The notes under the pieces were generated by a model. The model did not search any database, was not told the origin of the DNA, and saw nothing but the letters and a program-made list of their open reading frames with translations. A program made the translations under genes and the position numbers. Below, piece by piece: positions 28-45,871 of a stretch of DNA of 55,551 bases (position 1 is its first letter; every line of letters starts with the position of its first letter). Source of the stretch: an uncultured Clostridia bacterium (GTDB lineage Bacteria > Bacillota > Clostridia > Christensenellales > Borkfalkiaceae); NCBI GenBank assembly GCA_947176485.1, contig CAMWQS010000001.1, positions 1 through 55,551 on the forward strand, given 5' to 3'.

Positions 28-57
28 CCCCCGAATATGCCGCGTTTAAGCGCATTT
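28..57 (+). repeat. Interspersed motif M, copy a (intergenic)
   Basis: CCCCCGAATATGCCGCGTTTAAGCGCATTT. It shares CCCCCGAATATGCCGC with copy k (45759) and fits the family consensus CCCCC-AYATATG-..-AAATAACGC-..-TTTT. Confidence 0.6.
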
Positions 58-81
58 AGCGACCAAAAATCAATTAAATAC

Positions 82-158
82 ACACCCGTAGCTCAGATGG
101 ATAGAGCAATAGCCTCCGACGCTATGTGCCGCTGGTTCGACTCCAGTCGGGTGTACCA
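82..158 (+). tRNA. tRNA-Arg (anticodon CCG)
   Basis: Cloverleaf read by eye: acceptor ACACCCG/CGGGTGT, D arm GCTC..GAGC, anticodon stem ATAGC/GCTAT with loop CTCCGAC, T arm GCTGG-TTCGACT-CCAGT, discriminator A and encoded CCA. Confidence 0.9.
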
Positions 159-162
159 TTAT

Positions 163-196
163 AAGACAACCCTAATTTTGCGGGTTGTCTTTTTTG
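163..196 (+). terminator. Rho-independent terminator after tRNA-Arg
   Basis: Perfect 10-bp stem AAGACAACCC/GGGTTGTCTT with a 9-nt loop, followed by a T-run. Confidence 0.85.
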
Positions 197-215
197 ATAA
201 ATAAAATCTTGCTAA

Positions 216-244
216 TTGACAATAACCCGCTAATCCGTTATAAT
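216..244 (+). promoter_or_regulatory. Consensus sigma-70 type promoter for tcdA; predicted leaderless transcript
   Basis: TTGACA (216-221), 17-nt spacer, TATAAT (239-244). The ATG at 252 is only 7 nt past the -10 and there is no Shine-Dalgarno sequence. Confidence 0.65.
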
Positions 245-251
245 TTTTTCT

Positions 252-1001
252 ATGTTAAACCAGTTTTCAAGAACCGAAATGTTGTTCGGCAAAAAGGGGA
301 TGGAAGCCCTTGCGCGTGCGCGGGTTGCCGTTTTCGGAATAGGCGGCGTGGGCGGCTATACCGTTGAAGCCTTAGTCCGCTCGGGCGTGGGCGCGATAGA
401 TATTATCGACAACGACAAGGTCAGCCTTACCAATATCAACCGCCAAATTTACGCCACGCATAAAACGGTGGGCAAGTACAAGGTTGACGTTGCTGCCGAA
501 AGAATTGCCGAGATAAACCCCGACTGCAAGGTTACGGCGCATAAGACCTTTTATATGCCCGAAACTCAAGCCGAGTTCGATTTTACCGAGTACGACTACA
601 TCGTTGACGCGATAGATACGGTTACGGGCAAGCTTACGATAATCGAGAACGCGCAAAAGTGCGGGACCCCCGTTATAAGCGCGATGGGCGCGGGCAACAA
701 ATTGGACCCGACCGCGTTCGAGGTCGCGGATATTTACAAGACTACGGTTTGCCCGCTTGCAAAGGTTATGCGGCACGAGCTGAAAAAACGGGGCGTCAAG
801 AAACTGAAAGTAGTTTATTCCAAGGAAGAACCCGTTAAGCCCGACCCGTCGGTGCAAGAGAACTGCCGTGAAGAATTAACCGCGGGGCGGCGGGATATCC
901 CCGCAAGTTGCGCCTTCGTCCCGTCGGTTGCGGGGCTGATTATTGCGGGCGAAGTAATAAAGGATTTAGTTAATAACGGTAAGAACGATGGAAGAAAATA
1001 A
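252..1001 (+). CDS. tcdA: tRNA threonylcarbamoyladenosine dehydratase (ThiF/HesA family, TcdA/CsdL-like)
   Basis: N-terminal FSRTEMLFG..VAVFGIGGVGGY Rossmann motif and NINRQ motif, typical of the TcdA branch of E1-like enzymes. Confidence 0.85.
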   Translation: MLNQFSRTEMLFGKKGMEALARARVAVFGIGGVGGYTVEALVRSGVGAIDIIDNDKVSLTNINRQIYATHKTVGKYKVDVAAERIAEINPDCKVTAHKTFYMPETQAEFDFTEYDYIVDAIDTVTGKLTIIENAQKCGTPVISAMGAGNKLDPTAFEVADIYKTTVCPLAKVMRHELKKRGVKKLKVVYSKEEPVKPDPSVQENCREELTAGRRDIPASCAFVPSVAGLIIAGEVIKDLVNNGKNDGRK

Positions 1002-1830: not shown

Positions 1831-1844
1831 TAAGGGGAAAAGGA

Positions 1845-3702: not shown

Positions 3703-4584
3703 TTAATCGTATATTTTGCTGCAAATATATTCCGCATAAAGGCGGGCAATATTCACGCCCGTAACCCGCTCAATGCCCCCGAAAAAGGCGTTTGAGTTGA
3801 CTTCGCACACTAAATAGCCACCTTTTTCGGCGTATAAAAGGTCAATTCCGCAGTAGTCAAGTTCAAGTGTTTTTGCCGTTAATTCGCATATATCCCGTAG
3901 GCAATCGTCAATTTCGATAGGTTTTGCCGTGCCGCCAAGCTCCAAATTAGAGCGGAAGTCTGTATCAGATTTTCTCTGCATAGCGGCAACGGCTTTGCCG
4001 CCTATGACTATGACGCGCACGTCTTTACCCGCGCTTGAAGATATAAACTTCTGAAAAAGGTGGGGCGTGCATTTCAGCTTTGCACATAAGGCTTCAAGTT
4101 CCTGACGGTCGTCCGCCTTATAAACGCCCTTGCCGAGCGAGCCGTAGCTTTCCTTTACTATAACGGGGTAGCCCAAAGTCTTTTCAATAAAATCGATATC
4201 GTCCGCTTTCACGGTTGCTTTCGCGTCGTAGCAAAGGAGTCCGCCAACCGTCGGCGGCATCGGTACCCCGTGCCCTAAAAGTGCGAGGTGGGTTTCCATC
4301 TTATCGTCGCAAACGCGCACTGCGGCGTGGCTGTTAAAAAGCCTCACCCCCGACTTTTCCAAAATTGCGGAGGTGTATTTGTCCTTATCCAGATACACGC
4401 AGAAGTCGTAGCCGTTAAGCTCGTTTACGAGTTCGCCCTTGCCGTCAAGGTATGCAAAAAAGCCGTTCCGCCTTATCTCCGCGTCTACGCCTAAGCGTGC
4501 GAACTCGGTTTTAAGCCGTTCGGCTTGGTTCAGCCCCGTGGGGAGGGTAGAGTATGCATTTATAATAATAATTGCGCGTTTCAC
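3703..4584 (-). CDS. ATP-grasp ligase, RimK-like family
   Basis: ATP-grasp fold signatures (GYPVIVKESYGSLGKGV, DVRVIVIGGK, FRSNLELGG, CGIDLL). GTG start overlaps the upstream gene stop (GTGA). Confidence 0.75.
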   Translation of the reverse strand: MKRAIIIINAYSTLPTGLNQAERLKTEFARLGVDAEIRRNGFFAYLDGKGELVNELNGYDFCVYLDKDKYTSAILEKSGVRLFNSHAAVRVCDDKMETHLALLGHGVPMPPTVGGLLCYDAKATVKADDIDFIEKTLGYPVIVKESYGSLGKGVYKADDRQELEALCAKLKCTPHLFQKFISSSAGKDVRVIVIGGKAVAAMQRKSDTDFRSNLELGGTAKPIEIDDCLRDICELTAKTLELDYCGIDLLYAEKGGYLVCEVNSNAFFGGIERVTGVNIARLYAEYICSKIYD

Positions 4585-5192
4585 TGTCGTTTTAAATAGT
4601 TTTTATAAATCTTTTTGTCGGGCGTGCCGTTTTCTATAATATTTATGGTTTTGCTCTGTTTTCCGTCTTTTACTGCGCAGTAAGAAACCGTTTTATACTT
4701 GCCGCCGCGTTCCATAAGTCGGCAGAAGGTGGCGCCGAGTCTATCTATTATCGCGGTGGTTATCGTAGCTTTTCTTGACAAGGAAAGCTTGCCGAAAGCC
4801 GAAAAATCAAAAGCTATAAGCTCTTTAAAGTTATTAGTTTTAACGAAGAAACTGTTGCCGTCGTTTGAAATATAATAGGTTACGTTGTCCCGTTCGGGGT
4901 GCATAAGCGCGGCGTTCTCAATGAAAACTTCTTGTACGTAATTTTTTATAATGCGGTCAAGGGGCTTCCCGTATTTGTAGTTGAAAATTGCCGCAAGCAA
5001 CGCAAACACGCCCATTAGTGGAATGCAAACGCCCAAAGCATAAATACGAAAATCGATTCTGGATAATGCTATTGCAACCGATAAAAAAACTATAAGCTCA
5101 ATGCAGGCAATTCCTGAGCCAACCGTTGCAAGCAGCCCGCAAAACTCGCCTTTTTTAAGTCTTTTGATTTCTTCCGTATTTAAATTCGCCAT
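4581..5192 (-). CDS. Hypothetical membrane protein (2 predicted TM helices)
   Basis: Two hydrophobic segments near the N-terminus. Translationally coupled to the ATP-grasp gene. Own consensus promoter directly upstream. Confidence 0.6.
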   Translation of the reverse strand: MANLNTEEIKRLKKGEFCGLLATVGSGIACIELIVFLSVAIALSRIDFRIYALGVCIPLMGVFALLAAIFNYKYGKPLDRIIKNYVQEVFIENAALMHPERDNVTYYISNDGNSFFVKTNNFKELIAFDFSAFGKLSLSRKATITTAIIDRLGATFCRLMERGGKYKTVSYCAVKDGKQSKTINIIENGTPDKKIYKNYLKRQ

Positions 5193-5234: not shown

Positions 5235-5263
5235 TTGAAAATAATTACAAATTGCGGTATAAT
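5235..5263 (+). promoter_or_regulatory. Promoter of the HNH-like gene; predicted leaderless
   Basis: TTGAAA (5235-5240), 17 nt, TATAAT (5258-5263), then 6 nt to the ATG at 5270. No SD. Confidence 0.6.
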
Positions 5264-5269
5264 GGGACT

Positions 5270-5698
5270 ATGAAACTCAATTTTGAACTTGTGCCGGACA
5301 GCTGTTGGTACAGCAATTTAAGAAGTATTTTATCCCCCGCGCAGTGGGGCGTCGTCCGCAAGGAAGCGTATGCCTGTGCGGGCGGTAAATGCGCCATATG
5401 TGGGGGTGTATCGCCCAGATTAGAGGCTCACGAGCAGTGGGAATACGACGAAAAGAACGCAGTACAGAAGTTGAAAACCGTAGTTGCCGTGTGCAAAAGC
5501 TGCCACGAAGTTATCCATATAGGCAGAACTTCTTTGATGGGCGGTGAAGAAAGGGCGGCAGCGCATTTTATGAAAGTTAACGGCTGCACCTACGCCGAAT
5601 ACCGCAAGGCCTTGGGCGAAGCAAACGAAGCTCACCGCCGCAGAAACCTTGTTCCCGAGTGGAAGCTTGACCTGTCGTATCTGAAAAAATTTTGTTGA
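5270..5698 (+). CDS. HNH-like / zinc-ribbon protein
   Basis: CAICGG...H...CKSCHEVIH cysteine/histidine pattern. Start moved from the TTG at 5252, which lies inside the -10 box, to MKLNFELVPD. Confidence 0.6.
   Translation: MKLNFELVPDSCWYSNLRSILSPAQWGVVRKEAYACAGGKCAICGGVSPRLEAHEQWEYDEKNAVQKLKTVVAVCKSCHEVIHIGRTSLMGGEERAAAHFMKVNGCTYAEYRKALGEANEAHRRRNLVPEWKLDLSYLKKFC
5381..5406 (-). repeat. Motif M core-only copy n, inside the HNH-like CDS
   Basis: Contains the exact 12-mer CATATGTGGGGG (5395-5406), shared with 10609 and 38042. It encodes the CAICGG zinc-ribbon motif, so it could also be coincidental. Confidence 0.35.
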
Positions 5699-8073: not shown

Positions 8074-8076
8074 TTA

Positions 8077-8106
8077 AAATGCCGTTATTTAAGGTATATA
8101 TGGGGG
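8077..8106 (-). repeat. Interspersed motif M, copy c (fills the nrdD-nrdG spacer)
   Basis: Plus strand AAAATGCCGTTATTTAAGGTATATATGGGGG. The G-run lies 4 nt before the nrdG ATG. Confidence 0.75.
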
Positions 8107-8110
8107 TCAA

Positions 8111-10867: not shown

Positions 10868-13800
10868 ATGAAAAAGTTTTTCTCATTTATAATAAAACAG
10901 TCGGTGGCGATAGTTCTTATCGTCATCTTTGTTTTAGTATTCGGAATATATTCGACTGCCAGCATGTCCGTTAATCTTTTGCCGGACATAAGTATTCCCA
11001 TGGTCTGCGTGCAAGTAATTTATCCGGGTGTGGGCGCGCAGTCCGTTGAAAAGGACGTAACCGAAAAGATAGAGGACGGACTTTCGTCCATAAGCGGTAT
11101 AACCTGCGTCGACAGTTATTCTTACGACAACTTGTCTGCCGTGGTTTTGTCTTTCGACTACGGCACGGATACTAAGGAAAAGAAGACGGATATTCAAAGT
11201 AAGCTCAATTCAATCGATTTGCCCGACAGCGTAATAACCTCCGTTTACGATATTGATTTAAACGCCGAAGCGCTTGCAACCCTTTCAATAACCTCGGAAA
11301 GCGGCGAAACCGACGAAGATAAGCTTGCCAATGCGTATGCCGCCGCAGAAGAGATAGCCGCCAAAATATCGGCAATAGACGGTGTTGAAAGCGTAGAAAT
11401 TAAAGGCGGCGCGCAAACCTTTTTTGAAATTACGCCGTTTATCGGACTTGAGCTTATAGCACCACTAATCGTACAGGCGTTTTCTTACGGGCAACTTGAT
11501 ATACCCCTCGGCAATTTGACGCAGAACGGCGAAAGCGTTCAGATACGAAACAACTCTGACGTTGCAAAGCCCGAAGATATTGAAAACATGCCGCTTAGTT
11601 TACCGTCGTCAATTGTTACGCTTTTGAGCTCTGTTAAGCAGGTTATGGGCTATTACGAAGACAGCACCGTCGATGACTTGGAAAAGCTGCAAGGAGACTT
11701 AGGGACGGGCGTGTTGGCGGTTCTTGCCGATATCGGTACGTATTCCGCAAAAGAGCTCAACGACTTTTCTACCCTTAAAACTTATATGAATATAGCCGGC
11801 AATTACACGGCGGAGCAGCTTAGGAACGTTAAAACAAGCCGTTATTACAGCGAAATTAAAAAGCGGGTAACAAACGAGGACGGCTCTCCCAAAACCGACG
11901 AAGAGATAGAAAGCTTGTTGGAAGATATAAAAGCAGCTTATCCGCTTGCCGCAGATTACGTAACCGTCGACATGTTAAAGGTAATTCGTGACGGGAAGAT
12001 AGACGTGATTATCGACTTCCGCGAAAGCTATTTGGAAGTGAAAGAAGACTACGGTAACGACGAGTTTTACGAGCTGACGGACGACGATTATTTCGTTCTT
12101 GAAACCGAGTTCGTTCAAGTATATTCGGGAGTCTACGACTATAATAACCTAACGGAAGAGCAAAAAACCGACGTATATAATAAAATAGATTTTGCAAAAA
12201 AGACGTCCGCGACGGGGCTTGCCGGCATAGCCGATAAGAAGGAAGAAGAAGGAGATAAATACAATCCTACGGATTCCGAATGCGCCTTGCTGTTTGCGGG
12301 GACGGAGCTGTCAAGCGAGCACCCCATAATCGTATCCCCGACGTTTATCGCTTTCGTAAGAAGCGAAAGCTATGAAGAAAATATGCAACGGCTTATCGAC
12401 TTCCGCGGAGAAGTCGGGGACGGGGTTGAGCTTACTGCTAAACAGTGGTACGAGCTTTACGACAGTTTAAACCTAAAGGGAGTATTTGAATTCAAGCTCT
12501 CTGAAAACCTTTTCGGCTTTATAACGGATACGGACTTTACTGATTTGGTGGGCGGCGAAAAGGTTGTAAAGGTAAGCGAAATCGCAAGCGTACACACGCG
12601 TGACACCTTTAATTCCTACGTTTATTTCGGGGACGGCAAGGCTACCGTCGTAAAAGGTGCCATAATCGAAGTTTACAAATCAAACGGAGCCAATTCTTCA
12701 CGCGTGGTTGACGAAGTGAAAAAGGTTTACACCGAGTATCTGGGCGGCAGTGAAAACCACGGCGCAAAGGTCGTTCTTTTAGACGACCAATCCGAGTTTA
12801 TCTCAGACAGCATTTCAAACGTGCTCGTCAGTATGCTTATAGGTGGGGCGCTTGCCGTTCTCGTAATATTTATGTTCTTAAAGAAGGTGCGCACCTCGCT
12901 AATCGTTGCAATCACGATGCCCCTTTCCGTACTTGCGGCGCTAATCTGCCTTTTCCTTATGGGGATAACGCTGAACATGGTTTCTCTCGGCGGGCTTGCC
13001 GTGGGAATAGGAATGCTCGTTGATAACAGCATCGTCGTCATCGAAAGTATATCAAAACACCGTGATATGGATAAAACCGCCTTTGAAGCAGCTGTGGACG
13101 GCACCACGGAAGTGGGCGGCGCGCTGTTCGGTTCAACGCTTACAACCGTCTGCGTGTTTATCCCGATAATCTTTTCCGGCGGACTTACGGGGGAAATTTT
13201 TACCGATTTAAGCTGGGCGGTAATATTTTCACTTGCATTCTCGCTTATAGTCGCGGTAACCGTAATACCCGCGCTGTATTCGCTTTTCGGTGGAGGGAAA
13301 CGCCTATTAAAGGGTGGCAGGCTTAATAAATCGTTACCCGCCGAGCCGAAGGCGGAAATTAGCGTAGACCCCCATATATGTGCCAACGAACGGCAAATTT
13401 CCGATGAAAAACCTAAAAAATCGTTCAAAGAAAAGCTTGCAGTATTAAAACAGTCCAAGATTATGGACGCGATAACGGGCTTCTACGGCAAAATACTTCC
13501 CTCAGTATTAAATAAGAAGCTGGTTTGTATTTTGAGCGCAGTCGTCGTATTCGGCGCGAGCATAGGTTTATTGTTCGTTACGGGCACCGAGTTCCTGCCC
13601 TCTATCGACAAAGGGCAAATCGAAGTCAATATGACTTACGGCTCCGGGGCTGATTTGGCGGAGGTGGAAAGTGACGTTTTTGCCTTTGCGGAAACTATTC
13701 AAAATGAAATTCCCAATATAGAATACGTGTCGGTCAGCGTTGGTAAGCACGGGCTTCTTGCCTTGACGGATACGGGGCTTATAAAGGTTCAGCTTACCAC

Positions 13801-15037
13801 AAACCGCGGCACTTCAAAAGTTGTGAATGAAATTCGTGCCCTTTCAGAGGGGAATTCGAAGCCTCGGGGCACGGTTACGGTTAAGGAAATAGACGGTGTG
13901 GTCGCTTCGCTTATGTCGGGCGCGGACGATTTATCGGTAACAATCGTCGGCGCGGACGGCGAAATTCTTAAAGCCATTACAGGTGAAATTGCCGCTAAGC
14001 TTGAAGAAAACTCTTTCAGGGACGTGAAAAACAGTGCTACCGAAACCGCCACGGAGTACAGCTTGAAGTTTGACCGCAACAAGATGGCAGAGCTTGGCTT
14101 AGACTATCAAACGCTGATTTTAACGCTTAGAATCGGGCTTGCTTCTTACACTGCTTGCACCGTAACCATAGACGACGAAACTTACGACTTAAACGTCAAG
14201 TTTGACGGAAATTCCATAACCTCCGTTGACGAGCTAAACGATTTCGTCGTGGGTGCAGATAGCGACGGAAAAGCCGTGAAACTAAGGGATATATGCGGGG
14301 TAACCGAAAATAAAGTAGAGGCTTGTATAAGAAGAACCGACGGAAAGCAGATGATTTCCGTGTCGGCTGCGCTCCCGGGCGTGGACACGGGTACGGCAAG
14401 CAAACAAATGCAGAAAATCGCGGAAGAGGTTCTTTCAAACCCCGAATACGAAGGCTACGGCTTCGAGTCGAGCGGAATATCCAGTTATCTCACGGACGCG
14501 TTCACTGGGCTTGCTGTTGCGCTCGTGGTTTCGTTCTTCCTGCTGTTTGCGGTTATGGCAGTACAGTTCTCGTCGGCGGTTAAGCCTTTAATAATAATGG
14601 CAAGCATACCGTTCAGCTTTACGGGCGGGTTCATCGCGCTCGTTATAACGGGCACGAGCCTGAACGTCGTATCGTTCATAGGCTTAATTATGCTTATGGG
14701 CGTGGTGGTAAACAACGCTATCGTCATGCTTGAAAAAATTAAGCAGTTACATAGCGAGGGGATGGAACACTTTGCCGCCGTTCAAGAAGCTTGCAAGGTG
14801 CGCCTGCGCCCGATATTTATGACGACGCTGACGACCATTCTCGCGCTTATTCCGCTTGCCATAGGCGTAGGGCAGGGCAGCGAGCTTATGCAGCCCCTCG
14901 GCATAGTCGTTATCGGCGGGCTGCTGATAGGTACGCTTGTAACGCTGCTTCTCGTCCCCACGGTTTATTGCGCCGTACATAGGCTTTCTTCCAAGTATCC
15001 CAACGGTAAACGTGCCGCCCAAACGGCTAAGAATTGA
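10868..15037 (+). CDS. RND-superfamily efflux permease (AcrB/SwrC-like), unusually long at 1389 aa
   Basis: AcrB-type N-terminus, two 6-TM bundles and two large extracytoplasmic loops. The first loop is about twice the usual size. Confidence 0.85.
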   Translation: MKKFFSFIIKQSVAIVLIVIFVLVFGIYSTASMSVNLLPDISIPMVCVQVIYPGVGAQSVEKDVTEKIEDGLSSISGITCVDSYSYDNLSAVVLSFDYGTDTKEKKTDIQSKLNSIDLPDSVITSVYDIDLNAEALATLSITSESGETDEDKLANAYAAAEEIAAKISAIDGVESVEIKGGAQTFFEITPFIGLELIAPLIVQAFSYGQLDIPLGNLTQNGESVQIRNNSDVAKPEDIENMPLSLPSSIVTLLSSVKQVMGYYEDSTVDDLEKLQGDLGTGVLAVLADIGTYSAKELNDFSTLKTYMNIAGNYTAEQLRNVKTSRYYSEIKKRVTNEDGSPKTDEEIESLLEDIKAAYPLAADYVTVDMLKVIRDGKIDVIIDFRESYLEVKEDYGNDEFYELTDDDYFVLETEFVQVYSGVYDYNNLTEEQKTDVYNKIDFAKKTSATGLAGIADKKEEEGDKYNPTDSECALLFAGTELSSEHPIIVSPTFIAFVRSESYEENMQRLIDFRGEVGDGVELTAKQWYELYDSLNLKGVFEFKLSENLFGFITDTDFTDLVGGEKVVKVSEIASVHTRDTFNSYVYFGDGKATVVKGAIIEVYKSNGANSSRVVDEVKKVYTEYLGGSENHGAKVVLLDDQSEFISDSISNVLVSMLIGGALAVLVIFMFLKKVRTSLIVAITMPLSVLAALICLFLMGITLNMVSLGGLAVGIGMLVDNSIVVIESISKHRDMDKTAFEAAVDGTTEVGGALFGSTLTTVCVFIPIIFSGGLTGEIFTDLSWAVIFSLAFSLIVAVTVIPALYSLFGGGKRLLKGGRLNKSLPAEPKAEISVDPHICANERQISDEKPKKSFKEKLAVLKQSKIMDAITGFYGKILPSVLNKKLVCILSAVVVFGASIGLLFVTGTEFLPSIDKGQIEVNMTYGSGADLAEVESDVFAFAETIQNEIPNIEYVSVSVGKHGLLALTDTGLIKVQLTTNRGTSKVVNEIRALSEGNSKPRGTVTVKEIDGVVASLMSGADDLSVTIVGADGEILKAITGEIAAKLEENSFRDVKNSATETATEYSLKFDRNKMAELGLDYQTLILTLRIGLASYTACTVTIDDETYDLNVKFDGNSITSVDELNDFVVGADSDGKAVKLRDICGVTENKVEACIRRTDGKQMISVSAALPGVDTGTASKQMQKIAEEVLSNPEYEGYGFESSGISSYLTDAFTGLAVALVVSFFLLFAVMAVQFSSAVKPLIIMASIPFSFTGGFIALVITGTSLNVVSFIGLIMLMGVVVNNAIVMLEKIKQLHSEGMEHFAAVQEACKVRLRPIFMTTLTTILALIPLAIGVGQGSELMQPLGIVVIGGLLIGTLVTLLLVPTVYCAVHRLSSKYPNGKRAAQTAKN
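13369..13400 (+). repeat. Motif M, copy g, in the inter-half linker of the RND CDS
   Basis: CCCCCATATATGTGCCAACGAACGGCAAATTT, translated in frame as DPHICANERQIS. Confidence 0.7.
14269..14300 (-). repeat. Motif M, degenerate copy q, inside the RND CDS
   Basis: Minus strand TTACCCCGCATATATCCCTTAGTTTCACGGCTTTT, which aligns with copy b over most positions. Confidence 0.4.
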
Positions 15038-15044
15038 AAAGCCC

Positions 15045-15078
15045 AAAAAATGCGTTAATTAAGGCATATATTGGGGGG
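15045..15078 (-). repeat. Interspersed motif M, copy e
   Basis: Plus strand AAAAAATGCGTTAATTAAGGCATATATTGGGGGG, 7 nt after the RND stop codon. Confidence 0.75.
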
Positions 15079-16760: not shown

Positions 16761-16831
16761 TATGTACAAGTTTTAATTTTTTAAGTGAACTGCCCCGAAA
16801 CAGCCGCGTTTTAGGGCGGTTTTTTCAATTG

Positions 16832-16875
16832 CCCCCCATATATGTGCCAAATAACGCACTTTTTGGCGCATTTTT
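16832..16875 (+). repeat. Interspersed motif M, copy f (longest copy)
   Basis: CCCCCCATATATGTGCCAAATAACGCACTTTTTGGCGCATTTTT. An internal imperfect palindrome TGTGCCAAA/TTTGGCGCA is present. Confidence 0.8.
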
Positions 16876-35470: not shown

Positions 35471-36589
35471 TTAATCGTTGTATAACGTGCTTGTAATCGT
35501 ATCGAGCGAATAATTCAAAGTACCGAGGCTGAAAGGAATGGGCACCGACATTTTAACCATCGTCGTTCTGCCCGTGTTATTCCTTGCGTTATCGATTGCC
35601 GCAAACCAATACTGTTGCGAAACGCCATTCATATCGTTAGCCGAATTAAGCTTGGCGGTTACGCAAACGGTGTGCAAGGACTTGCCTTCGCCTTTGACGT
35701 ATAAACCGACTGCTTCGTTGCCTAAAATTTCCTCGTAAGCCGTTCTGTCTTTTTCGCTTAAAGCTGTGGAGGAACCTGTAAAGGTATAGTCCTGCAGCTT
35801 TCCGGAGGGTGAATAAACGCTGATAACCTGCGATAAGCCTTCGCTAAGCTGCATAGCCCTGACCGCGATATTCAAGCCGTTTACGTCTACCAAGGAGTTG
35901 TCCGTATCGCCAAGTCCGTCGGTTACGAACTCTTTTGCACCGTCGCCCGTTATAACGGTTTTAGCCGCCGTGCCCTCGTAGTTGTAAGAGGTTTCAACCG
36001 TCTGGTTGACCGTAACGTAAGCTTCTTCCAAGCTGCTTACTTGATACTCCGCAGGGGAAGCCCCGTTCACGATTTGCTTCGAATACAGCGGGCGCAAATG
36101 CTCGTTTACGTCCGTGAAATAGCTTACCGTCTTTATGCTGTTATGGAAGGGTTCGGAGGTTTTGTCGCCAACCGTGAAGGTAACGGAAGGAACGTCAAGC
36201 TCCGTTTCATAGCAGTATACGGTGATAGCCTCGTCGGGATAGGACGCCTTGAATTCTTCGTTAATCAAATCTTTTTTGAAGGTCGTCCCGTAGAACTTCG
36301 TCGTATAGGTACCGTCCGAATAGTCAACGGAATAGGTGGTGTTGCCCGCCGTTTCCTTGTCGTGTTTTACGGTATAGACGATTTCTTCCGCGCCCTTAAA
36401 CGCGTCGTTACCTTCGGTAAAGGTAGGCTGAATATATTTGAAATTCGTATCCGCATACCAGTTTGAGCTGAACGCCGCCTCGTTTGCTTTTCCGGTGTTG
36501 CCGCACCCGTTACAGCCGGTACAACCCGCAAAAATAACCGCACAGCCCGCCGCCAAGGTAAGCGCGGCAACGCCAAAACGTTTCTTCAT
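35471..36589 (-). CDS. Hypothetical lipoprotein
   Basis: Signal peptide with lipobox-like LAAGC/FAGC. No recognisable catalytic motif. Confidence 0.7.
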   Translation of the reverse strand: MKKRFGVAALTLAAGCAVIFAGCTGCNGCGNTGKANEAAFSSNWYADTNFKYIQPTFTEGNDAFKGAEEIVYTVKHDKETAGNTTYSVDYSDGTYTTKFYGTTFKKDLINEEFKASYPDEAITVYCYETELDVPSVTFTVGDKTSEPFHNSIKTVSYFTDVNEHLRPLYSKQIVNGASPAEYQVSSLEEAYVTVNQTVETSYNYEGTAAKTVITGDGAKEFVTDGLGDTDNSLVDVNGLNIAVRAMQLSEGLSQVISVYSPSGKLQDYTFTGSSTALSEKDRTAYEEILGNEAVGLYVKGEGKSLHTVCVTAKLNSANDMNGVSQQYWFAAIDNARNNTGRTTMVKMSVPIPFSLGTLNYSLDTITSTLYND

Positions 36590-39851: not shown

Positions 39852-42800
39852 CGAGCAGGTTGCCGCTATAGCCGCACGCGGTAAAACCATAGTTTCCGCC
39901 TCTGCGGGCAGCGGTAAAACCTTTGTAATGATAGAAAAACTCGTTGACGCGGTTTCGGGCGGCGTTGACTTAGACGACGTGCTTGCCGTAACCTTCACCA
40001 AAAAGGCGGCGGCACAGATGAAGGAAAAGCTGCGCTCTGCTATAATAAAGCGCGTAGAGAACGCGGGCGAGGAAAAGCCCCGCTTAAAATCACAGCTTTC
40101 CAAAATATCCTCTGCAAATATTTCAACCATTCACTCTTTCTGCGCAAGGCTTATAAGAACTTACTTCTACGCTCTTGATGGGGTTGACTCTGGCTTCGAT
40201 ATAATTTCTGCGGACGACGCCGTCGCACGCGATTTAAAGGCGCGTGCCGTGGACAATCTGTTCGAAAGACTGTACGAAGACGACGATAATGAGTTCAAGC
40301 TGCTTTTGTCGTGCTTTATGAAAAAGCGTAACGATGCGTCGTTAAAGCGGCTTTTGTGGGAAGCTTACGACGGGGTGCGTTCGGTTGCACACTATAAAGA
40401 TATACTTGAAAACGCAAAAAGCGTGTATACCGACGATGGCTTTAAAGGGGTATGCGAAGACTACTTTTTGACCCTAAAAAACAAGATTGCCCCCCTAATA
40501 TGTGCCGTTGAACGCTTTAAAAGCCAATTTCCCGTTACTAAAAAGGCAGCTGCCTACGACCAGCTTTTTACCGAAATGGAGTGCTCGCTGCAAGCGTACG
40601 AAGCCGCAGGGCTTTTCGGCGCAAAGCCCGCCTTAACGGTATCCAGAAAGCCCGTCGACGCGGCGGAAGACAAGGAAGCCGGCGCTTTATTTAAGGCGTT
40701 TAAGGACTCTTTAACCAAAAAATACGCCGCCCTTTGCCCCGATATCGAAACGGAGGAAAAGGAGCGGGAAAAGTTCTTTAAAAGCGGACTGGTTGCAACT
40801 GCCTTTTCAAGCGTACTTTTGCAATTGGATAGGGAATATGCCGCAGTTAAGGCGGATGAAAACAAATTAGATTACAACGATTTAGAGCATTTAACCCTTC
40901 AGCTTTTAAGCGACGAGGGGATAAAAAAGGAAATAAATTCGGGCTTTAAATACGTCTTCGTGGACGAGTACCAGGACGTAAACCCCGTGCAAGAAGAAAT
41001 AATTTCTTCACTGTGCGGCGAAACCTTCCTCGTCGGCGACGTCAAACAGTCAATTTACGGCTTCCGCGGCAGCAAGTCGGTTTTCTTCACCAAAAAATTT
41101 GAAAACTTTGAAAAGGGCTTGGGCAACGCCTTGAAGCTTTCAAGCAATTTCAGAAGCTCGGACGCTGTTATTAACTTTGCAAACGACCTCTTTTCAAAGC
41201 TGATGCGCCCCGATACTTGCGGCGTGGACTATAAAAAAACCTCCGTTATGCGTGCGGGCGGACAGTACCCCGCAGGCTACGGAGAGGCTAAAATTCACGT
41301 TTTCGGCAAGAACGAGGAGGAAGAAAGTGAGCTTGAGGTGTATTCCGTTTTAAACGACGGAAGCGAAGCAAGTCACACGCGAGAGGGGCTTGCCGTTCTT
41401 AAAATCGTCGAAAAGGAGCTGAAAAGCACCCATTACGATTTGAAAAAGGGGGAATACGTCCCCACCCAGCTTGGCGATATCTGTATTCTCACGCGCAAAA
41501 ACAAGGGTGATTCTGTTGAAGGAATCGTCCGCGCACTGACCGACCAAGGATACGCCGTTTCGGGCGCGCAGGAGGCGAATATCTGCGAGCTTGCGGAAGT
41601 AAAGCAAATTTTGGATATTCTTTCGCTTATCGATAACGCCGAGCAAGACGTGCCTTTGGTTACCGCGCTTTTGTCGCCTTTGGGCGGCTTTTGCGAGGAC
41701 GAGCTCGCCGAAATAAGAATTGCTTTTCAAGGGGTAAAGCCCCCGTTATCGTTCAGAAAATGCTGTGAAAAATACTCTGCTCTCCCGGGTGAAATATCGC
41801 GAAAGTTGCACATATTCGGGGGGCAATTGCAAAAACTCAGAGATTTAGCGGACGTTTTGCCCACGGGTGAGCTTATAGACGAGCTTTTGGAAACTTTCGG
41901 GTTAGAAAGCGGTTACGGTGCCGGCGGCGAAATAAAGGTTAAAAACGTTTTACGCCTTAGGGAGGAGGGCGCGTCCCTACCCCTTGCAGCCTTCTTGCAA
42001 AAAATTAAGGCGGGCGGTTACGACGTTTCCGCGCCCGCGCCCGCCCCTTCGGACAGTATAAAAATTATGTCTATGCACGCCTCGAAAGGGCTTGAATTCC
42101 CCGTGGTGATAATTGCCGATATCTGCAAAACCTTTAAGGGTCAAGACTATTCCGAGGTACCGTTTGACGAAAAATTCGGCTTTGCGCCCAAGGCTTTCGA
42201 TAGGGAAAATATGCTTGCGCAAAAGACGGTATTGCGGCGGCTGATAAAATCCAAACAAGACGAGGAAGAGCTTTTTAACGAGCTTAACCTTTTCTACGTT
42301 GCTTGCACCCGCGCCATGTGTAACCTGCACGTGCTTGCCGAAACGGTCAAGCCGTTCGATGAAACCAATTTCTTTGATGCCAAGTGCTATGCCGACCTTT
42401 TCAATATGCAAGACTTCTTGCGCGAAGACGCGGGCGATTTAACCGACTTTTCGGCGGAGGAATACGGCGGCTCGATGCTGTACGCGCCCGACGACGCACT
42501 CGTTGAAAGTATCGAAAAGCACTTTATGCAGCTCTACGCGCACGAAAAAAGCGTCGATTTGCCCGTAAAAAGCTCGGCTTCGGCAATACTCAGAATGCGC
42601 GACGACGAACCCCACGAGGTACCCCACGTACTTTTCGGCGGCGAAGGGGAAACGAGTACGGACAAAGGCACCGCCTACCACAGATTTTTGGAGCTTTGCG
42701 ATTTTTCAAAGAAATCGGTGGAAGAAATCGAGGGCGAAAAGCTCAACTTTTTAAATTCGGGAAGAATTTCTGAGGAGCAATTCAGTCTTTTAAGCGGTGA

Positions 42801-43152: not shown

Positions 43153-43154
43153 AA

Positions 43155-43188
43155 ATAACCCCGCGGAATTTTCCGCGGGGTTATTTTA
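43155..43188. terminator. Bidirectional terminator after addA
   Basis: 14-bp stem AATAACCCCGCGGA/TCCGCGGGGTTATT flanked by A/T runs. Confidence 0.85.
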
Positions 43189-43845
43189 TACGTTGTATTT
43201 TGCCATAAGCTTTAAAAGCGCGTTGAAGTTGTCGTTCAAAATGTCGGCTTCGGCAGGGTTCAAAGAGCCTTTTATTTTAAGCACAGCCAAAGTGTTTTTC
43301 AGCTTTTCAAGCTCAAGCCGGTCGGTTTTTGCAAGGTTCTTAGTCAAAAGCTTGTCGGTAACAGCAACCGCGTGTTCAAGCCTAACGCCGTTTTTTGCGG
43401 CGGGTACTTGCGCTTGGGCTTGCATATCCGTACGCGCTGCGCGAATCGGCTGAACGGGGATAGGGGTTTCGGTAACGGCAGCTTGCGTAACCTTTGCCTT
43501 GCGGACCGCGTAGTTTTTTGTAAAACCGCAAAGCGCACCGTAGAGAACGTACCCGACTACCCAAAACGCAACGGTAGCGGTAATCGACTGTGCAAGACTG
43601 CACTTAAGCATAAACGCGGCAAGGGTTACCGCGGCGTACGCATTCGTCAGGCACAAAAAGGGTTTTTTGGATGCCGCTTTAAACTTTTTCGAAGCAAGCG
43701 TCGCCACGAGCGCAATTAAGAAAATTGCAAGATAAGAGCCCCATATAAAGTATATTAAAGTGTCGAAGGGGAGGCTGTCAAACCAACTGTAAAAGCCTTT
43801 AAAAAAATTAACCATCAGTTTAATTATAGCCTTAAATTTTTGCAA
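43186..43845 (-). CDS. Hypothetical membrane protein
   Basis: Three or four hydrophobic segments at the N-terminus and a charged helical C-terminus. TTG start at 43845; the ATG at 43815 is an alternative. Confidence 0.55.
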   Translation of the reverse strand: MQKFKAIIKLMVNFFKGFYSWFDSLPFDTLIYFIWGSYLAIFLIALVATLASKKFKAASKKPFLCLTNAYAAVTLAAFMLKCSLAQSITATVAFWVVGYVLYGALCGFTKNYAVRKAKVTQAAVTETPIPVQPIRAARTDMQAQAQVPAAKNGVRLEHAVAVTDKLLTKNLAKTDRLELEKLKNTLAVLKIKGSLNPAEADILNDNFNALLKLMAKYNV

Positions 43846-43847
43846 AG

Positions 43848-43880
43848 GGTGCCGAATATGCTCGAAATAACGCTGTTTTT
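43848..43880 (+). repeat. Interspersed motif M, copy j (intergenic)
   Basis: GGTGCCGAATATGCTCGAAATAACGCTGTTTTT. The C-run is degraded. Confidence 0.55.
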
Positions 43881-43896
43881 GTCAACGGATATTATC

Positions 43897-44406
43897 TTAA
43901 ATGGATTTCAAATTGGTCTGAATTAATTCGCCTGCTTTTTCTGCCTTTTTAAGTATTTCACCCGTTACGGGCGTTCCCTTCTTTATTATCACCACGCCGT
44001 CCTTTACGACGTCACTTTTAAGCCGTTTCGCCTTTTTGGCAATGACCACGTCGCCGTAAATAAGCTCGGTCGGAGAATAGCTTTTTTTGCCTATTTTAAC
44101 CCGCAAAATTCTTTTCCCCGAATAGGACATATCTTCCAGATTACCTAAATAAATTCCGCCGTCGTCGTAGCTTGCCCTGCCAAGGCGAATGGGCTTTGCC
44201 GCCTTTATCACCCGCTCTCTGTCCTCGAAAAGAATGGTTTCGTCAATCTTCAAAACGTTTTTCATATCAATATGAAACTCGTTCTCATCCTCGTCGGCGC
44301 AGGTAAGGCACTCTATCTTCCCCGCCGCCGCGTTCACGGAAACAACGTAACCCTTTCTTCCTTCCGTGCTTAAAACCTTTTTGCCGTACAACATTGAAAC
44401 GTTCAT
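43897..44406 (-). CDS. Hypothetical protein (possibly PRC-barrel-like)
   Basis: Clean ORF. YGKKVLSTEGRKGYVVSV weakly resembles YlmC/YmxH-type PRC barrels, so family assignment is tentative. Confidence 0.5.
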   Translation of the reverse strand: MNVSMLYGKKVLSTEGRKGYVVSVNAAAGKIECLTCADEDENEFHIDMKNVLKIDETILFEDRERVIKAAKPIRLGRASYDDGGIYLGNLEDMSYSGKRILRVKIGKKSYSPTELIYGDVVIAKKAKRLKSDVVKDGVVIIKKGTPVTGEILKKAEKAGELIQTNLKSI

Positions 44407-44509
44407 ACTTTACTCCTTACGCTCTATCATATTTTTAATTTCAAGGCCTTACTACAACTAAAAATATATATTTTTGTCGATTTTAAAGTATATAATGTTT
44501 ACATATGAC

Positions 44510-44538
44510 TTGACACGTGTAAAGTTTTGGTGTAAACT
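44510..44538 (+). promoter_or_regulatory. nadB promoter with overlapping 14-bp near-palindrome (candidate NiaR operator)
   Basis: TTGACA (44510-44515), 17 nt, TAAACT (44533-44538). TTGACACGTGTAAA (44510-44523) is palindromic except for one symmetric position. Confidence 0.5.
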
Positions 44539-44569
44539 TTTCTAAATCATATATAAAAGAAGGCATAAT

Positions 44570-45871
44570 TTGAAAGAAAAATACGACGTTATTATCGTTG
44601 GCGCGGGCGTTGCGGGGCTTAACTGCGCGCTGCATCTGCCCAAAGATAAAAAAGTTTTAATAATCTGCAAGGGCAAGCCCGAAGAAAGCGACAGCTACCT
44701 TGCGCAAGGCGGAATTTGCCGTTTGCAGGGCGAGGACGACTACGAAGGCTATTTTGACGACACTATGCGTGCTGGGCACAACGAAAACAACCCCGCCGCC
44801 GTGGAGTGTATGATTAAGTCCTCGCCAGAGGTCATAGACGAGCTTATTTCCGTCGGCGTTGACTTTGCGCGTGAAAAGGACGGCAGCCTTGCCGCCACGC
44901 GTGAGGGCGGGCACTCGAGAAACCGCATTTGCTTCCACGAGGACTGCACGGGTAAGGAAATAACTTCAAAGCTGATGGCGGCAGTGACAAAACTTCAAAA
45001 CGTAGAAATTTGCCCCCAAAACACGCTAATTGATTTAATTTGTAGCGAAAAAGAGTGTATGGGCGTAGTCGTTGTCGACAACGAAACGGGAAAGGTTAAG
45101 AAAATTATTGCGGACTACACCGTGCTTGCCACGGGCGGCATAGGCGGAATATTCGAAAACTCTACGAACTTCCGACTTTTAACGGGCGACGGCGTTGCAA
45201 TATGTATGAATCGCGGCGTTGCCGTGGATAACGTCAATTATATTCAGATACACCCCACGACGCTTTATTCAGAAAAGAAGGGTGAGAGGTGCTTCCTTAT
45301 CTCCGAATCGGTTAGGGGTGAGGGCGCGCATTTACTTGATAAATACGGCAACCGTTTTTGCGACGAGCTTCAGCCGAGGGACGTGGTTACAGAGGCAATT
45401 TTAAAACAGATGAAAGAGGAGGGTTCGTCCTTCGTTAGGTTGGATATGCGCCCCGCAGGGAAAGAAGAGCTTTCAACCCACTTCCCCAGCATCGTTAAAA
45501 GATGCGCGGAGGAGGGGTACGACGTGTTTTCCGAGCCCGTTCCCGTCGTGCCGGCACAGCATTACTTTATGGGTGGAGTAAGAAGCGACCTGAACGGCAG
45601 AACGACGATGGATAGGCTTTATGCCGTGGGCGAAACCTGCTGTAACGGCGTGCACGGTGCAAACAGACTTGCGTCAAATTCACTTTTGGAAAGCGTGCTT
45701 TTTGCAAAGCGCGCCGCCCTGGATATTGCGGCAAATTTTAAGGCGAATGAACAATTGACCCCCGAATATGCCGCAAATAACGCACTTTTAGGCGATTATT
45801 CAAACCCCGAAAAACTGTTAAACAGCTATAAACGCGCATTACTTAAAGCAATTGAGGAGGCAAATAAATAA
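44570..45871 (+). CDS. nadB: L-aspartate oxidase
   Basis: DVIIVGAGVAGL FAD fold and RLYAVGETCCNGVHGANRLASNSLLE. TTG start. Confidence 0.9.
   Translation: MKEKYDVIIVGAGVAGLNCALHLPKDKKVLIICKGKPEESDSYLAQGGICRLQGEDDYEGYFDDTMRAGHNENNPAAVECMIKSSPEVIDELISVGVDFAREKDGSLAATREGGHSRNRICFHEDCTGKEITSKLMAAVTKLQNVEICPQNTLIDLICSEKECMGVVVVDNETGKVKKIIADYTVLATGGIGGIFENSTNFRLLTGDGVAICMNRGVAVDNVNYIQIHPTTLYSEKKGERCFLISESVRGEGAHLLDKYGNRFCDELQPRDVVTEAILKQMKEEGSSFVRLDMRPAGKEELSTHFPSIVKRCAEEGYDVFSEPVPVVPAQHYFMGGVRSDLNGRTTMDRLYAVGETCCNGVHGANRLASNSLLESVLFAKRAALDIAANFKANEQLTPEYAANNALLGDYSNPEKLLNSYKRALLKAIEEANK
45759..45794 (+). repeat. Motif M, copy k, inside nadB (C-terminal region)
   Basis: CCCCCGAATATGCCGCAAATAACGCACTTTTAGGCG preceded by CAATTGA. 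Translated as TPEYAANNALLGD. Confidence 0.7.

Follow-up and report, generated by a model that had tools for sequence, protein, structure and literature searches.

The window, meaning the whole stretch of 55,551 nucleotides analysed here, carries a tRNA-Arg gene and, among its protein-coding genes, glpK, rimK, nrdD, nrdG, dut, rex, an RND transporter gene, an SNF transporter gene, addB, addA, nadB and nadC. Scattered through it on both strands is a motif of ~36 bp, here called M, with the asymmetric and gapless consensus ATTG(A/C)-CCCCC-NN-ATATG-NNNN-AA(A/T)TAACGC-NN-TTTT and the short blocks ATTG, CCCCC, ATATG, AAATAACGC and TTTT. The sites are listed below, with bit scores from a position weight matrix (PWM) trained on 200 copies taken from other genomes.

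24..57, plus: spacer copy of M that lies 25 nt 5' of tRNA-Arg (82-158); 32.7 bits
2079..2112, minus: weak, borderline M-like site inside glpK (FGGY kinase), antisense; 16.5 bits
3673..3706, minus: M copy in the convergent glpK/rimK spacer, abutting the rimK stop, the TAA of which gives the TTAA directly before CCCC; 39.5 bits
3871..3904, minus: M copy inside rimK, sense, conserved in L038; 26.0 bits
5377..5410, minus: M copy inside the ORF 5252-5698, antisense; 31.9 bits
8077..8110, minus: M copy occupying the entire 37-nt nrdD-nrdG spacer, its plus-strand GGGGG, 4 nt ahead of the nrdG start codon ATG, being the sole Shine-Dalgarno-like element; 39.0 bits
8641..8674, plus: M copy filling the nrdG-dut spacer, beginning at the nrdG stop codon (GTT TAA CCCCC), conserved in L075; 35.6 bits
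10591..10624, minus: M copy inside rex, antisense, encodes KVGTYVGGKP; 20.0 bits
12102..12135, minus: M copy inside the RND transporter gene, antisense; 24.2 bits
13365..13398, plus: M copy inside the RND transporter gene, sense, encodes DPHICANE; 32.9 bits
14270..14303, minus: M copy inside the RND transporter gene, antisense; 21.8 bits
15047..15080, minus: M copy 10 nt past the stop codon of the RND gene, in antisense orientation to the plus-strand genes on either side; 45.0 bits (an overlapping 17.9-bit match at 15037-15070, plus, is read as a shadow of the ATATAT centre)
16829..16862, plus: M copy following directly on the SNF transporter gene's terminator-like hairpin (16802-16821), an exact match to the 19-base scan pattern; 45.6 bits
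16946..16979, plus: marginal M-like site in a spacer; 14.6 bits
38024..38057, minus: M copy inside addB, antisense, encodes SSICGGL, conserved in L001, L003 and L004, weaker in L005; 37.7 bits
38804..38837, minus: M copy inside addB, antisense, in the conserved KRAISCGQ segment; 34.0 bits
40487..40520, plus: M copy inside addA, sense, encodes IAPLICAVER; 33.4 bits
40825..40858, plus: M-like site inside addA, sense, in the conserved DREYAAVK segment; 26.3 bits
41793..41826, minus: M copy inside addA, antisense, encodes HIFGGQLQ; 31.1 bits
43845..43878, plus: M copy in a 51-nt spacer between two minus-strand genes without assigned function, 5' half degenerate (GGGTGCC replaces CCCCC), conserved in 5 other genomes; 30.1 bits
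45755..45788, plus: M copy within nadB at its 3' end, sense, encodes LTPEYAANNA, an exact pattern match, conserved in L001, L003, L004, L036 and L039, weaker in L006; 46.4 bits
46116..46149, plus: marginal M-like site inside nadC, with orthologous sites at 21-26 bits in L001, L003 and L004; 11.7 bits

Over-representation of M in the window

The over-representation of M in the window is real, and the scans confirm it. At a threshold of at least 16 bits there are 21 matches, 10 on the plus and 11 on the minus strand, far above the 0.06 expected under an order-3 Markov null; 18 matches reach at least 20 bits (0.00 expected). A separate PWM trained on 7 intergenic copies only and then tested on genic copies gave 44.9 bits in NadB, 31.3 in AddB and 28.3 in RND, where the top null score was 18 bits.

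The motif was first noticed in a sequence-only reading of the window, and most of that description stands. All 13 copies it called good are present at the positions it gave, the strands are split as evenly as it said, and M lies, as claimed, in spacers and in at least six unrelated genes, of which we count seven. Its two 12-mers are exact wherever it placed them, CCCCCATATATG at 8645, 13369 and 16833 on the plus strand and CCCCCACATATG at 5395, 10609 and 38042 on the minus strand; 9 sites match when one mismatch is tolerated (0.11 expected). The quoted peptides DPHICANE, TPEYAANNALL, SSICGGL and HIFGGQL were recovered, and KVGTYVGGK follows from the sequence. Among the copies it judged weaker, the one at 5381 proved strong (31.9 bits) and the one at 14269 real (21.8 bits), while that at 16948 is marginal (14.6 bits). 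Its optional T has to be dropped, as the copies align without gaps and the T is part of the four variable bases, and it missed the sites at 2079 (glpK), 3871 (rimK), 12102 (RND), 38804 (AddB) and 40825 (AddA). Nor did it mention that M is confined to 1-17 kb and 38-46.2 kb of the window; no match was found in the remaining ~30 kb (P about 5e-5 at 0.33 per kb), and the integrase end holds no copies.

Distribution across genomes and placement relative to genes

In this genome and its relatives M recurs about once per ~2.6 kb, and its consensus is identical in 13 genomes. A 19-base M pattern, run against 185,579 species represented by a single genome each (596 Gb), matched 76 stretches, and all but one of these (75) come from MAGs of uncultured Christensenellales (Borkfalkiaceae-like). 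The density is ~0.3 per kb in three samples, namely the window (21 in 55.5 kb), motif-independent loci (53 in 164 kb) and pattern-seeded tiles (200 non-seed copies in roughly 590 kb), which implies, by extrapolation, a few hundred copies per genome (range about 100-900). Strand use is near equal across sampled copies (142 and 133), orthologous positions retain M down to about 60-70% protein identity, and its presence or absence is stable between species and not polymorphic. On a scale of 10-20 kb M is patchy: neither the genes nor the internal spacers of a 10-kb metabolic cluster of native composition contain a copy, the second half of L005 (defence-type genes) has none, and M is scarce in a hydrogenase operon that is likely highly expressed. 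One prophage has one strong copy per roughly 10 kb, and this single phage-borne copy sits in a DNA-metabolism module (methyltransferase, HNH endonuclease), not beside a terminase.

Coding sequence holds 56% of the sampled copies (153, with 122 elsewhere). Five copies lie in addAB. The density per kb is 2.75 in convergent spacers and 1.71 in co-directional ones, against 0.245 in coding sequence and 0.23 between divergent genes. Spacers after a gene end are 7-11 times denser than coding sequence, and copies between divergent genes are rare; of the 122 non-coding copies, 79 either overlap a gene end or follow a stop codon by no more than 25 nt, in either orientation. The 17.4 kb of divergent promoter spacers contain no non-seed copy (about 17 expected, P=3e-8). 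Co-directional spacers have 27 sense and 18 antisense copies and coding sequence 70 and 83, with all six reading frames used and one favoured (50 of 153). Tandem arrays of 2-3 copies in the same orientation occur, spaced 48-90 bp and not in helical phase, as in the L038 orthologue of the glpK/rimK spacer, which has 3 tandem copies to the window's 1. Inverted pairs are not formed, and only 3 of the 122 non-coding copies lie in terminator hairpins.

Origin and constraint of M copies

Orthologue alignments show no indels at copies in coding sequence. AddA and AddB orthologues have the same length as the window proteins, AddA ranging over 1098-1128 aa down to 57% identity, and in addA the residues under M differ outside the motif-bearing group. 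There, the columns of the copy at 40487..40520 are filled without a gap by FMRLKSAVEK in L005 and FSSLLREVEN in L006, and those of the copy at 41793..41826 by NDFQEKLN and GKFYERRE, respectively. The nrdD-nrdG spacer measures 37 nt with M in the window and 41 nt without M in L075. M is thus not a transposed element: its copies arise by base substitution over existing sequence, in spacers and also in genes, where residues are changed.

Once present, copies are held by constraint acting on the DNA itself. In a species with 70% identical AddA, 84% of synonymous codons are conserved inside copies and 51% outside (P=5e-7), and further comparisons gave 88% inside and 62% outside, and 97% and 69%. 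Coding sequence has 43 matches compared with 4.4 under synonymous codon shuffling, roughly 10 times the null. With this excess, the synonymous conservation, the six frames and the differing peptides, the earlier view that the conserved unit is nucleic acid and not a protein motif is strongly supported.

Discussion

The best-fitting reading, unproven and tentative, is that M may be a lineage-specific double-stranded DNA recognition word of uncultured gut Clostridia (Christensenellales, Borkfalkiaceae-like), resembling USS and DUS and kept by molecular drive. Some step in DNA transfer between cells of the clade, most likely a competence receptor binding free DNA, would prefer fragments that bear M, as in Pasteurellaceae (USS) and Neisseriaceae (DUS); near-consensus variants would be transmitted and recombined in more often, and copies would accumulate where sequence tolerates them. 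The highest density would be found directly past stop codons; moderately conserved genes would carry M often, promoters seldom and fast-evolving genes not at all. M resembles the DNA uptake signals, which to our knowledge are so far known only from relatives of Haemophilus and Neisseria.

Equal strand use, clade restriction, DNA-level constraint, gene-end placement and the scarcity of M in foreign or mobile DNA all count in favour of an uptake signal, and the extrapolated copy number is like that of USS and DUS. The share of M in coding sequence falls within the 34.5% to 65% of uptake sequences in ORFs, and its overwriting of residues that differ in relatives parallels the location of uptake sequences at poorly conserved amino acids (PMC2817400). 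A frame bias like that of M has also been reported for uptake sequences, and the five addAB copies are an anecdotal parallel to the enrichment of DUS and USS in genome-maintenance and RecBCD genes described in a 2025 preprint. However, about half of DUS and USS copies form inverted pairs or terminator hairpins, and this habit is absent from M. The sequence-only reading's comparison with uptake sequences supplies the best-fitting analogue. M is also longer and more degenerate than USS and DUS cores (9-12 bp). In Firmicutes known to be competent, DNA uptake is not known to depend on sequence. The roughly 700 kb sampled, only a minor part of each genome, yielded no comEA, comEC or prepilin gene, the sole competence-type find being a ComFC-like ORF. 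The patchy distribution counts against an uptake signal, as do the same-orientation tandem arrays, which uptake drive does not predict.

Nearly as likely is that M forms a site array for an abundant lineage-specific DNA-binding protein (nucleoid-organising, segregation or global silencing) under ordinary selection, without transfer bias. Such a protein would act on double-stranded DNA irrespective of orientation; the length covered by the blocks, about three and a half turns of the helix, fits an oligomeric or multi-domain protein, the same-orientation tandem arrays point to cooperative binding, the patchiness could reflect bound domains, and scarcity in promoter regions and the hydrogenase operon fits avoidance of interference. 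Retention at orthologous sites and constrained synonymous sites are also compatible with it. The array spacings are out of helical phase, however, selection would have to bear the cost of protein change at very many loci, and no candidate gene was found next to the copies. Noc, SlmA, MatP and ParB each have tens of short palindromic sites; a protein whose asymmetric sites of roughly 25 bits number in the hundreds and are written into coding sequence is not known to us. The operator of an abundant DNA-binding protein, proposed in the sequence-only reading, remains a serious rival as a site array without operator role; as a classical promoter operator it is unlikely, since divergent promoter regions have almost no copies.

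It is improbable that M marks fragments for another transfer route, for instance as a pac-like site for the terminase of a resident transducing phage or gene-transfer agent, with the same drive but no competence. Overwriting, synonymous constraint, clade restriction and orientation independence all apply here too, a phage of the clade exists and carries M, and a composite asymmetric site of roughly 36 bp with A/T tracts is more like terminase recognition sites than a 12-bp DUS. Against this, the lone phage-borne copy does not neighbour a terminase, and no host genome is known to us in which pac-like sites have built up.

Slightly less probable again is spread by transposition, in-frame insertion included, of a miniature non-autonomous mobile element (REP-, MITE- or RPE-like), despite numerous dispersed copies with unrelated flanks, REP-like enrichment at gene 3' ends, local arrays of variable copy number and a 5' TTGA, TAGA or TTAA that could pass for a target site. 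RPE- or MITE-like insertion, suggested in the sequence-only reading, is refuted by the ungapped coding copies with different residues in the same columns, the steady AddA and AddB lengths and the near-equal nrdD-nrdG spacers, and by the lack of any hairpin (fold z-scores between -1.4 and +1.6), of TIRs or target duplications at the copies and of transposase or RAYT-type genes near the clusters examined. The majority share of coding copies and stable presence between species also speak against it.

Roles in RNA or transcription control (3'-UTR or processing element, small-RNA target, alternative-sigma promoter, classical operator) are very unlikely. Many copies do lie between stop codon and terminator or 17-28 nt before a start codon, M contains TTGAC, and its reverse complement can give a GGGGG Shine-Dalgarno element. 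Yet orientation relative to transcription is close to random, no fold is conserved, Rfam has no family for M, inspection of the consensus reveals no usable -10 element at the right spacing, the genome has canonical TTGACA-17-TATAAT promoters, and divergent promoter spacers are avoided. Chance, compositional bias or convergent protein motifs would suit a few weaker genic sites on segments conserved outside the motif-bearing group too, such as DREYAAV at 40825 in addA and KRAISCGQ at 38804 in addB, but the probability of this reading is negligible, refuted as it is by window and coding counts far above their nulls, unrelated peptides in six frames and the confinement of all but one of the global pattern matches to one clade.

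A recurrent DNA word in the window

The two exact 12-mers on which the sequence-only reading built its motif, M, are where it placed them: CCCCCATATATG at 8645, 13369 and 16833 on the plus strand, and CCCCCACATATG at 5395, 10609 and 38042 on the minus strand. With one mismatch allowed there are nine 12-mer matches, against 0.11 expected from dinucleotide shuffles. All of the copies listed in that reading align without gaps, and the unit they define is (A/G)ATTG(A/C)-CCCCC-NN-ATATG-NNNN-AA(A/T)TAACGC-NN-TTTT. Its information, ~25 bits, is spread across roughly 36 bp with no near-perfect 9–12-bp core; only ATAT is nearly invariant, and the CCCCC and TAACG blocks carry ~1–1.4 bits per position.

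A first weight matrix took only the seven intergenic copies as input; the genic copies score 18–45 bits with it, while the best of 60 random sequences scores 18. The matrix was rebuilt from 200 copies in other genomes, none of them chosen via the search pattern, and in the window it gives 21 matches of at least 16 bits, where 0.06 are expected; raising the cut-off to 20 bits leaves 18, where none are expected. The count is thus far above expectation, and these statistics exclude a chance origin of M. Five window copies (2079, 3871, 12102, 38804 and 40825) had been overlooked, and the clustering of copies had gone unnoticed: all lie within 1–17 kb or 38–46.2 kb, and the other 30 kb of the window has none (P about 5e-5 at 0.33 per kb). 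The gene identities guessed from the sequence were borne out for ThiF, glpK, rimK, nrdD, nrdG, dut, rex, the RND pump, addB, addA, nadB and nadC. Partial look-alikes also occur at one place:

16722–16775 (+): two short look-alikes of the 5' half of M, ACACCCCGTAATATGT and GCACCCGTAATATGT, spaced by 32 nt in the 3'-terminal part of the SNF transporter gene, directly upstream of a full copy at 16829

Distribution and copy number

AddA homologues put the contig among uncultured Clostridia MAGs, and L036, a locus from MAG SRR14411243_bin.15, is assigned to the window's own species because compared protein ends are 94–99% identical. We scanned one genome per species (185,579 species, 596 Gb) with the pattern CCCCCNNATATGNNNNAAATAACGC, for which simple arithmetic predicts about four chance matches. 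Seventy-six stretches matched, 75 of them in 17 Christensenellales-type MAGs labelled 'uncultured Christensenella sp.', 'Clostridia/Clostridiales bacterium', 'Candidatus Borkfalkiaceae' or 'Ca. Coproplasma'; the one match elsewhere, in a Melainabacteria MAG, is no more than chance predicts. M is restricted to one clade. A single consensus is shared by 13 of the 13 genomes for which one was built, and no per-genome dialects were found among them. Local density in the window and sampled loci is 0.3–0.38 copies per kb, against 0.001 per kb expected, and exact matches to the 19-base search pattern number 1–14 per genome; extrapolation from these two figures suggests roughly 100–900 copies per genome. 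Literature searches covering repeats in Borkfalkia or Christensenellales and clostridial uptake sequences turned up no account of M.

Among viral contigs only one phage bears M, in a single strong copy, and the same phage is integrated in three MAGs:

L083:3309, L084 and L085 (IMG/VR, 64–86 kb): phage copy of M, in a spacer of a DNA-metabolism module encoding a methyltransferase, a PAPS-reductase-like protein and an HNH endonuclease
L026, L040 and L074: the same copy

Placement and anatomy

Placement was analysed in the window and 81 loci from other genomes (about 740 kb), which hold 275 distinct copies. The strands are used equally (142 plus, 133 minus) and without replication-strand skew; the 21 window matches divide into 10 plus and 11 minus, although the cumulative GC skew of the window climbs almost throughout. 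More than half of the copies (153, or 56%) lie inside coding sequences, 70 sense and 83 antisense; 82 lie in spacers and 40 straddle gene edges. Density differs sharply between kinds of spacer.

Density of M by location, window and 81 loci (copies per kb)
Convergent spacers: 2.75
Co-directional spacers: 1.71
Divergent spacers: 0.23
Coding sequences: 0.245

Copies are enriched in spacers just 3' of genes, and this gene-end bias is visible in individual positions, with 79 of the 122 non-CDS copies overlapping a gene end or following a stop codon by at most 25 nt. Of these 79, 45 share the strand of the gene and 34 are opposite to it. Predicted terminator hairpins are overlapped by only three of the 122. 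The placement statistics of M hold.

Beyond ~40 nt the flanks of different copies are unrelated. Some spacers contain same-orientation arrays of two or three copies at irregular intervals of 48–90 nt, one of which is a plain tandem duplication with a 78-nt unit; this is not the organisation of CRISPR-like arrays. The spacer between glpK and rimK holds one copy in the window and three in L038, a locus from another genome, and whether a particular spacer carries M is a stable trait from species to species. We saw no inverted pairs, apart from weak reverse-strand matches overlapping strong copies, which we read as shadows of the ATATAT centre.

Constraint at the DNA level

Three lines of evidence strongly support the earlier proposal that the conserved unit is nucleic acid. 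All six reading frames are used, and the encoded peptides (SSICGGQL, LPPEYAANNA, IAPLICA, RYLRHMWGA, PRTPQYMRQITR, AYSGGN) are unrelated, with one antisense frame favoured (50 of the 153 CDS copies). Matches in coding sequence run at ~10 times the null obtained by shuffling synonymous codons within genes: 43 observed against 4.4 in loci not chosen for M, and 13 against 1.8 in the window alone. Finally, among codons whose amino acid is unchanged from the window, those inside copies are far better conserved than those outside, and synonymous sites within copies are under constraint.

Codon identity to the window at unchanged amino acids, in three loci from other genomes
L004 (AddA 70% identical to window): 84% inside copies, 51% outside, P = 5e-7
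L001 (AddA 83–84% identical): 88% inside, 62% outside, P = 1.5e-5
L003 (AddA 92% identical): 97% inside, 69% outside, P = 2e-8

Copies arise by substitution

One earlier suggestion was an element that tolerates in-frame insertion, as Rickettsia palindromic elements do. AddA orthologues keep a length of 1098–1128 aa down to 57% identity, and the codon alignments of AddA and AddB have zero gaps at any copy; the NadB alignment has a single gap, in L001, and it is downstream of the copy. In species that carry the motif, addA 40487 reads K-I-A-P-L-I-C-A-V-E-R, where two more distant relatives outside the motif-bearing group read K-F-M-R-L-K-S-A-V-E-K (L005) and G-F-S-S-L-L-R-E-V-E-N (L006). At addA 41793 the motif-bearing species have H-I-F-G-G-Q-L-Q and the same relatives N-D-F-Q-E-K-L-N and G-K-F-Y-E-R-R-E. 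Because different residues fill the same columns without gaps, the motif must have overwritten existing codons by substitution, changing the protein. Copies arise via substitution, not insertion, and the insertion reading fails.

The spacer between nrdD and nrdG (window 8074–8110) makes the same point outside coding sequence. All of its 37 nt are M, in reverse orientation, and the reverse-complement GGGGG is the only Shine-Dalgarno-like element before the nrdG ATG; the corresponding spacer in L075, a locus from another genome, is 41 nt long, has an ordinary AAAAGGA and lacks M. M therefore took over a ribosome-binding site at nrdG. With 37 nt where M is present and 41 nt where it is absent there is no insertion footprint, which argues against the mobile or REP-like element of that same earlier suggestion. 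Sliding identity plots show no mosaic recombination blocks ending at M.

Readings excluded

Transposition (including insertion of the kind seen in Rickettsia), RNA structure, promoter or classical operator function, and chance are excluded. M shows no terminal inverted repeats and no target-site duplication, so it is not a MITE, a verdict to which the single orthologous spacer pair from nrdD-nrdG also contributes. No transposase was seen near clusters of M, and the idea of one flanked by inverted clusters was dropped: the genes between M clusters in L054 and L038 are ordinary ones (glpK, rimK, trkA and a comFC-like ORF). Membership among the extragenic REP/BIME elements is contradicted by the 153 copies in coding sequence, and the REP/hairpin model by the lack of a stem-loop fold: fold z-scores run from -1.4 to +1.6, with no shared structure. 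In a search with Rfam covariance models only two tRNAs attain the gathering score, and M is unmatched.

The earlier proposal that M is an operator does not survive in its classical form, since copies have mixed orientation and avoid divergent promoter spacers, where non-seed copies (those not selected by the search pattern) number none against about 17 expected (P = 3e-8). A visual comparison of M with the promoter consensuses of sigma-70, sigma-54, sigma-D, ECF and sporulation sigma factors reveals no usable spacing. NrdR boxes, cre, the ComK AT-box, dif and Tn3-type terminal repeats bear a partial likeness to it on inspection, and leave its distribution unexplained.

M and known recognition words

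With transposition, RNA, promoters and chance excluded, what remains is a double-stranded DNA word. We infer that it is read by a trans-acting factor common to the clade and strong enough to have recoded proteins. M appears, from its genomic behaviour, to belong with words that are recognised genome-wide and driven at the level of the DNA. Among these, the uptake signals USS and DUS are documented only in Pasteurellaceae and Neisseriaceae, in papers and preprints to late 2025. Between 34.5 and 65% of them lie in ORFs; they show frame bias, fall on poorly conserved residues, and are absent from genes without homologues in relatives and from foreign DNA (PMC2817400, PMC2346458, bioRxiv 10.1101/2025.10.24.684340). 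Their molecular drive is the one documented mechanism that recodes proteins.

M resembles them in being confined to one family-level clade with a single consensus used equally on both strands. Like them, M has a large share of its copies (56%) within coding sequence, spread over several frames of which one is favoured, and formed by substitution at poorly conserved residues. By extrapolation it may reach a few hundred copies or more in each genome, at ~1 per 3 kb locally. Copies persist at orthologous sites, are scarce in phages and foreign DNA and absent from genes without homologues in relatives, and are enriched just 3' of genes. The Haemophilus USS resembles M in combining a G/C core and phased A/T tracts within ~30 bp. 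The reverse complement of M also has AAAAGTGCGTT, near the Hin-USS, AAAGTGCGGT, probably by coincidence.

M also differs from them. It belongs to a Firmicute (Bacillota, Clostridia) and not to a proteobacterium, and its ~25 bits over ~36 bp include no nearly invariant core of 9–12 bp. Its copies do not come in palindromic pairs, and only 3 of 122 overlap terminator hairpins, the location of roughly half of all DUS and USS copies. M also forms same-orientation tandem arrays and is patchily distributed.

Other families are more distant. REP/BIME elements (RAYT) and MITEs are, like M, short, numerous and dispersed, with local arrays and a preference for spacers that follow the 3' ends of genes; M lacks a palindrome or terminal inverted repeat, more than half of its copies are inside genes, and neither insertion footprint nor transposase was seen. 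Rickettsia palindromic elements likewise repeat within unrelated protein-coding genes with the frame intact, but they are insertions of 100–150 bp that add residues, whereas M adds none and recodes existing codons. HIP1 (GCGATCGC, cyanobacteria), whose mechanism is to our knowledge unclear, is also a DNA-level over-represented word in genes and spacers with conserved orthologous sites. HIP1, Chi, KOPS and other strand-skewed, architecture-imparting oligomers are words of 5–8 bp, and Chi and KOPS are skewed to a replication strand; M is four to five times longer and has no such skew. Noc-binding sites, parS, cre and CodY boxes are specific sites that, like M, may be intragenic and in either orientation. 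They are 14–16 bp long, mostly palindromic and present in tens to a few hundred copies, the regulatory ones near promoters; M, unlike these Firmicute regulatory sites, avoids divergent promoter regions.

A possible link to DNA uptake

Among the explanations of M we tentatively rank first a molecular drive like that of uptake signals, in which M would be recognised during DNA transfer and would overwrite protein and spacer sequences alike. The link to DNA uptake is one that we infer. The idea of a word like DUS or USS was already present in the sequence-only reading; the ORF share, frame bias and clade restriction favour it, and the terminator pairs and short core typical of those signals have no counterpart in M. 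Our confidence stays low because the competence of these organisms is putative, M is longer and more degenerate than USS or DUS, terminator hairpins are avoided, tandem arrays occur and the distribution is patchy. The only competence-related ORFs seen are two ComFC-like ones, each with a double zinc ribbon and a phosphoribosyltransferase domain:

L054:6289–7059 (-): ComFC-like ORF
L005:14565–15269 (+): ComFC-like ORF

Crude regex and hydrophobicity screens for prepilins, ComEA and ComEC found none in ~700 kb, far too small a sample. In its full form, the proposal is that M is the first DNA uptake signal outside Proteobacteria, a ~36-bp composite by which a gut Firmicute lineage takes up or exchanges DNA of its own kind, with hundreds of protein and spacer sequences remodelled as a result; this is possible, but we consider it doubtful.

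Nearly as likely as such a drive is that an abundant DNA-binding protein peculiar to the lineage binds M as an array of sites, which would account better for the tandem arrays and the patchiness. A minor possibility is that packaging by a phage or gene transfer agent drives M; the idea of a pac site was rejected, the phage-borne copy not being near a terminase.

The genomic behaviour of M suggests either that self-preferring gene exchange is commoner than has been supposed, or that a different DNA-level force can overwrite coding sequences to the same extent. If the former is true, the sequence by itself is enough to reveal such exchange, even in organisms that have never been grown. Either outcome is relevant to recombination barriers in the gut microbiome and to constraints on protein sequences that do not come from the protein. 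M can serve as a clade marker for binning and for flagging foreign DNA, and is a ready bait with which to identify its binding protein; if it drives uptake, it may also provide a handle for the genetics of these bacteria.

Motif-free zones and neighbouring genes

The motif-free cluster at 27–36.6 kb encodes a HydABC-type hydrogenase, gltD, pfkB and a 2-hydroxyacid dehydrogenase. Its tetranucleotide composition correlates at 0.93–0.95 with the motif-rich zones, so a foreign origin was rejected; its GC3 is higher. Other motif-free genes encode a 3154-aa MBG/YDG protein, an LRR_5 protein and a GDSL lipase. Motif-free genes are either very conserved metabolic genes or fast-diverging surface-protein genes: nucleotide identity between species is 45–66% for the LRR_5 and lipase genes and 80–90% for addAB and the nad genes. 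It follows from this conservation pattern that copies occupy stably inherited, intermediately conserved genes and their 3' spacers.

17327–26791 (+): giant ORF, probably for a surface protein, of 3154 aa and including MBG_2 and YDG domains; no M; tetranucleotide r = 0.59–0.85 against other zones
47679–53272: genes for an ECF-type sigma factor, the LRR_5 (BspA-like) protein and the GDSL lipase
53426–54855: tRNA-Gln, then a tyrosine-integrase gene (-), GC 0.41, without M; this contig end is probably the edge of an integrated element
10868–15037 (+): RND/AcrB-type ORF of 1389 aa, with four M copies of at least 20 bits and one marginal site

The Pfam ACR_tran profile, of 1021 positions, matches the RND ORF in two stretches, which suggests a large insertion or fusion in its N-terminal half. 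Five ORFs have no significant Pfam match (35471–36589 (-), 43186–43845 (-), 43897–44406 (-), 4581–5192 (-) and 5252–5698 (+)), one of them with marginal matches (E about 0.04–0.055), and several of the five are syntenic beside addAB across the clade.
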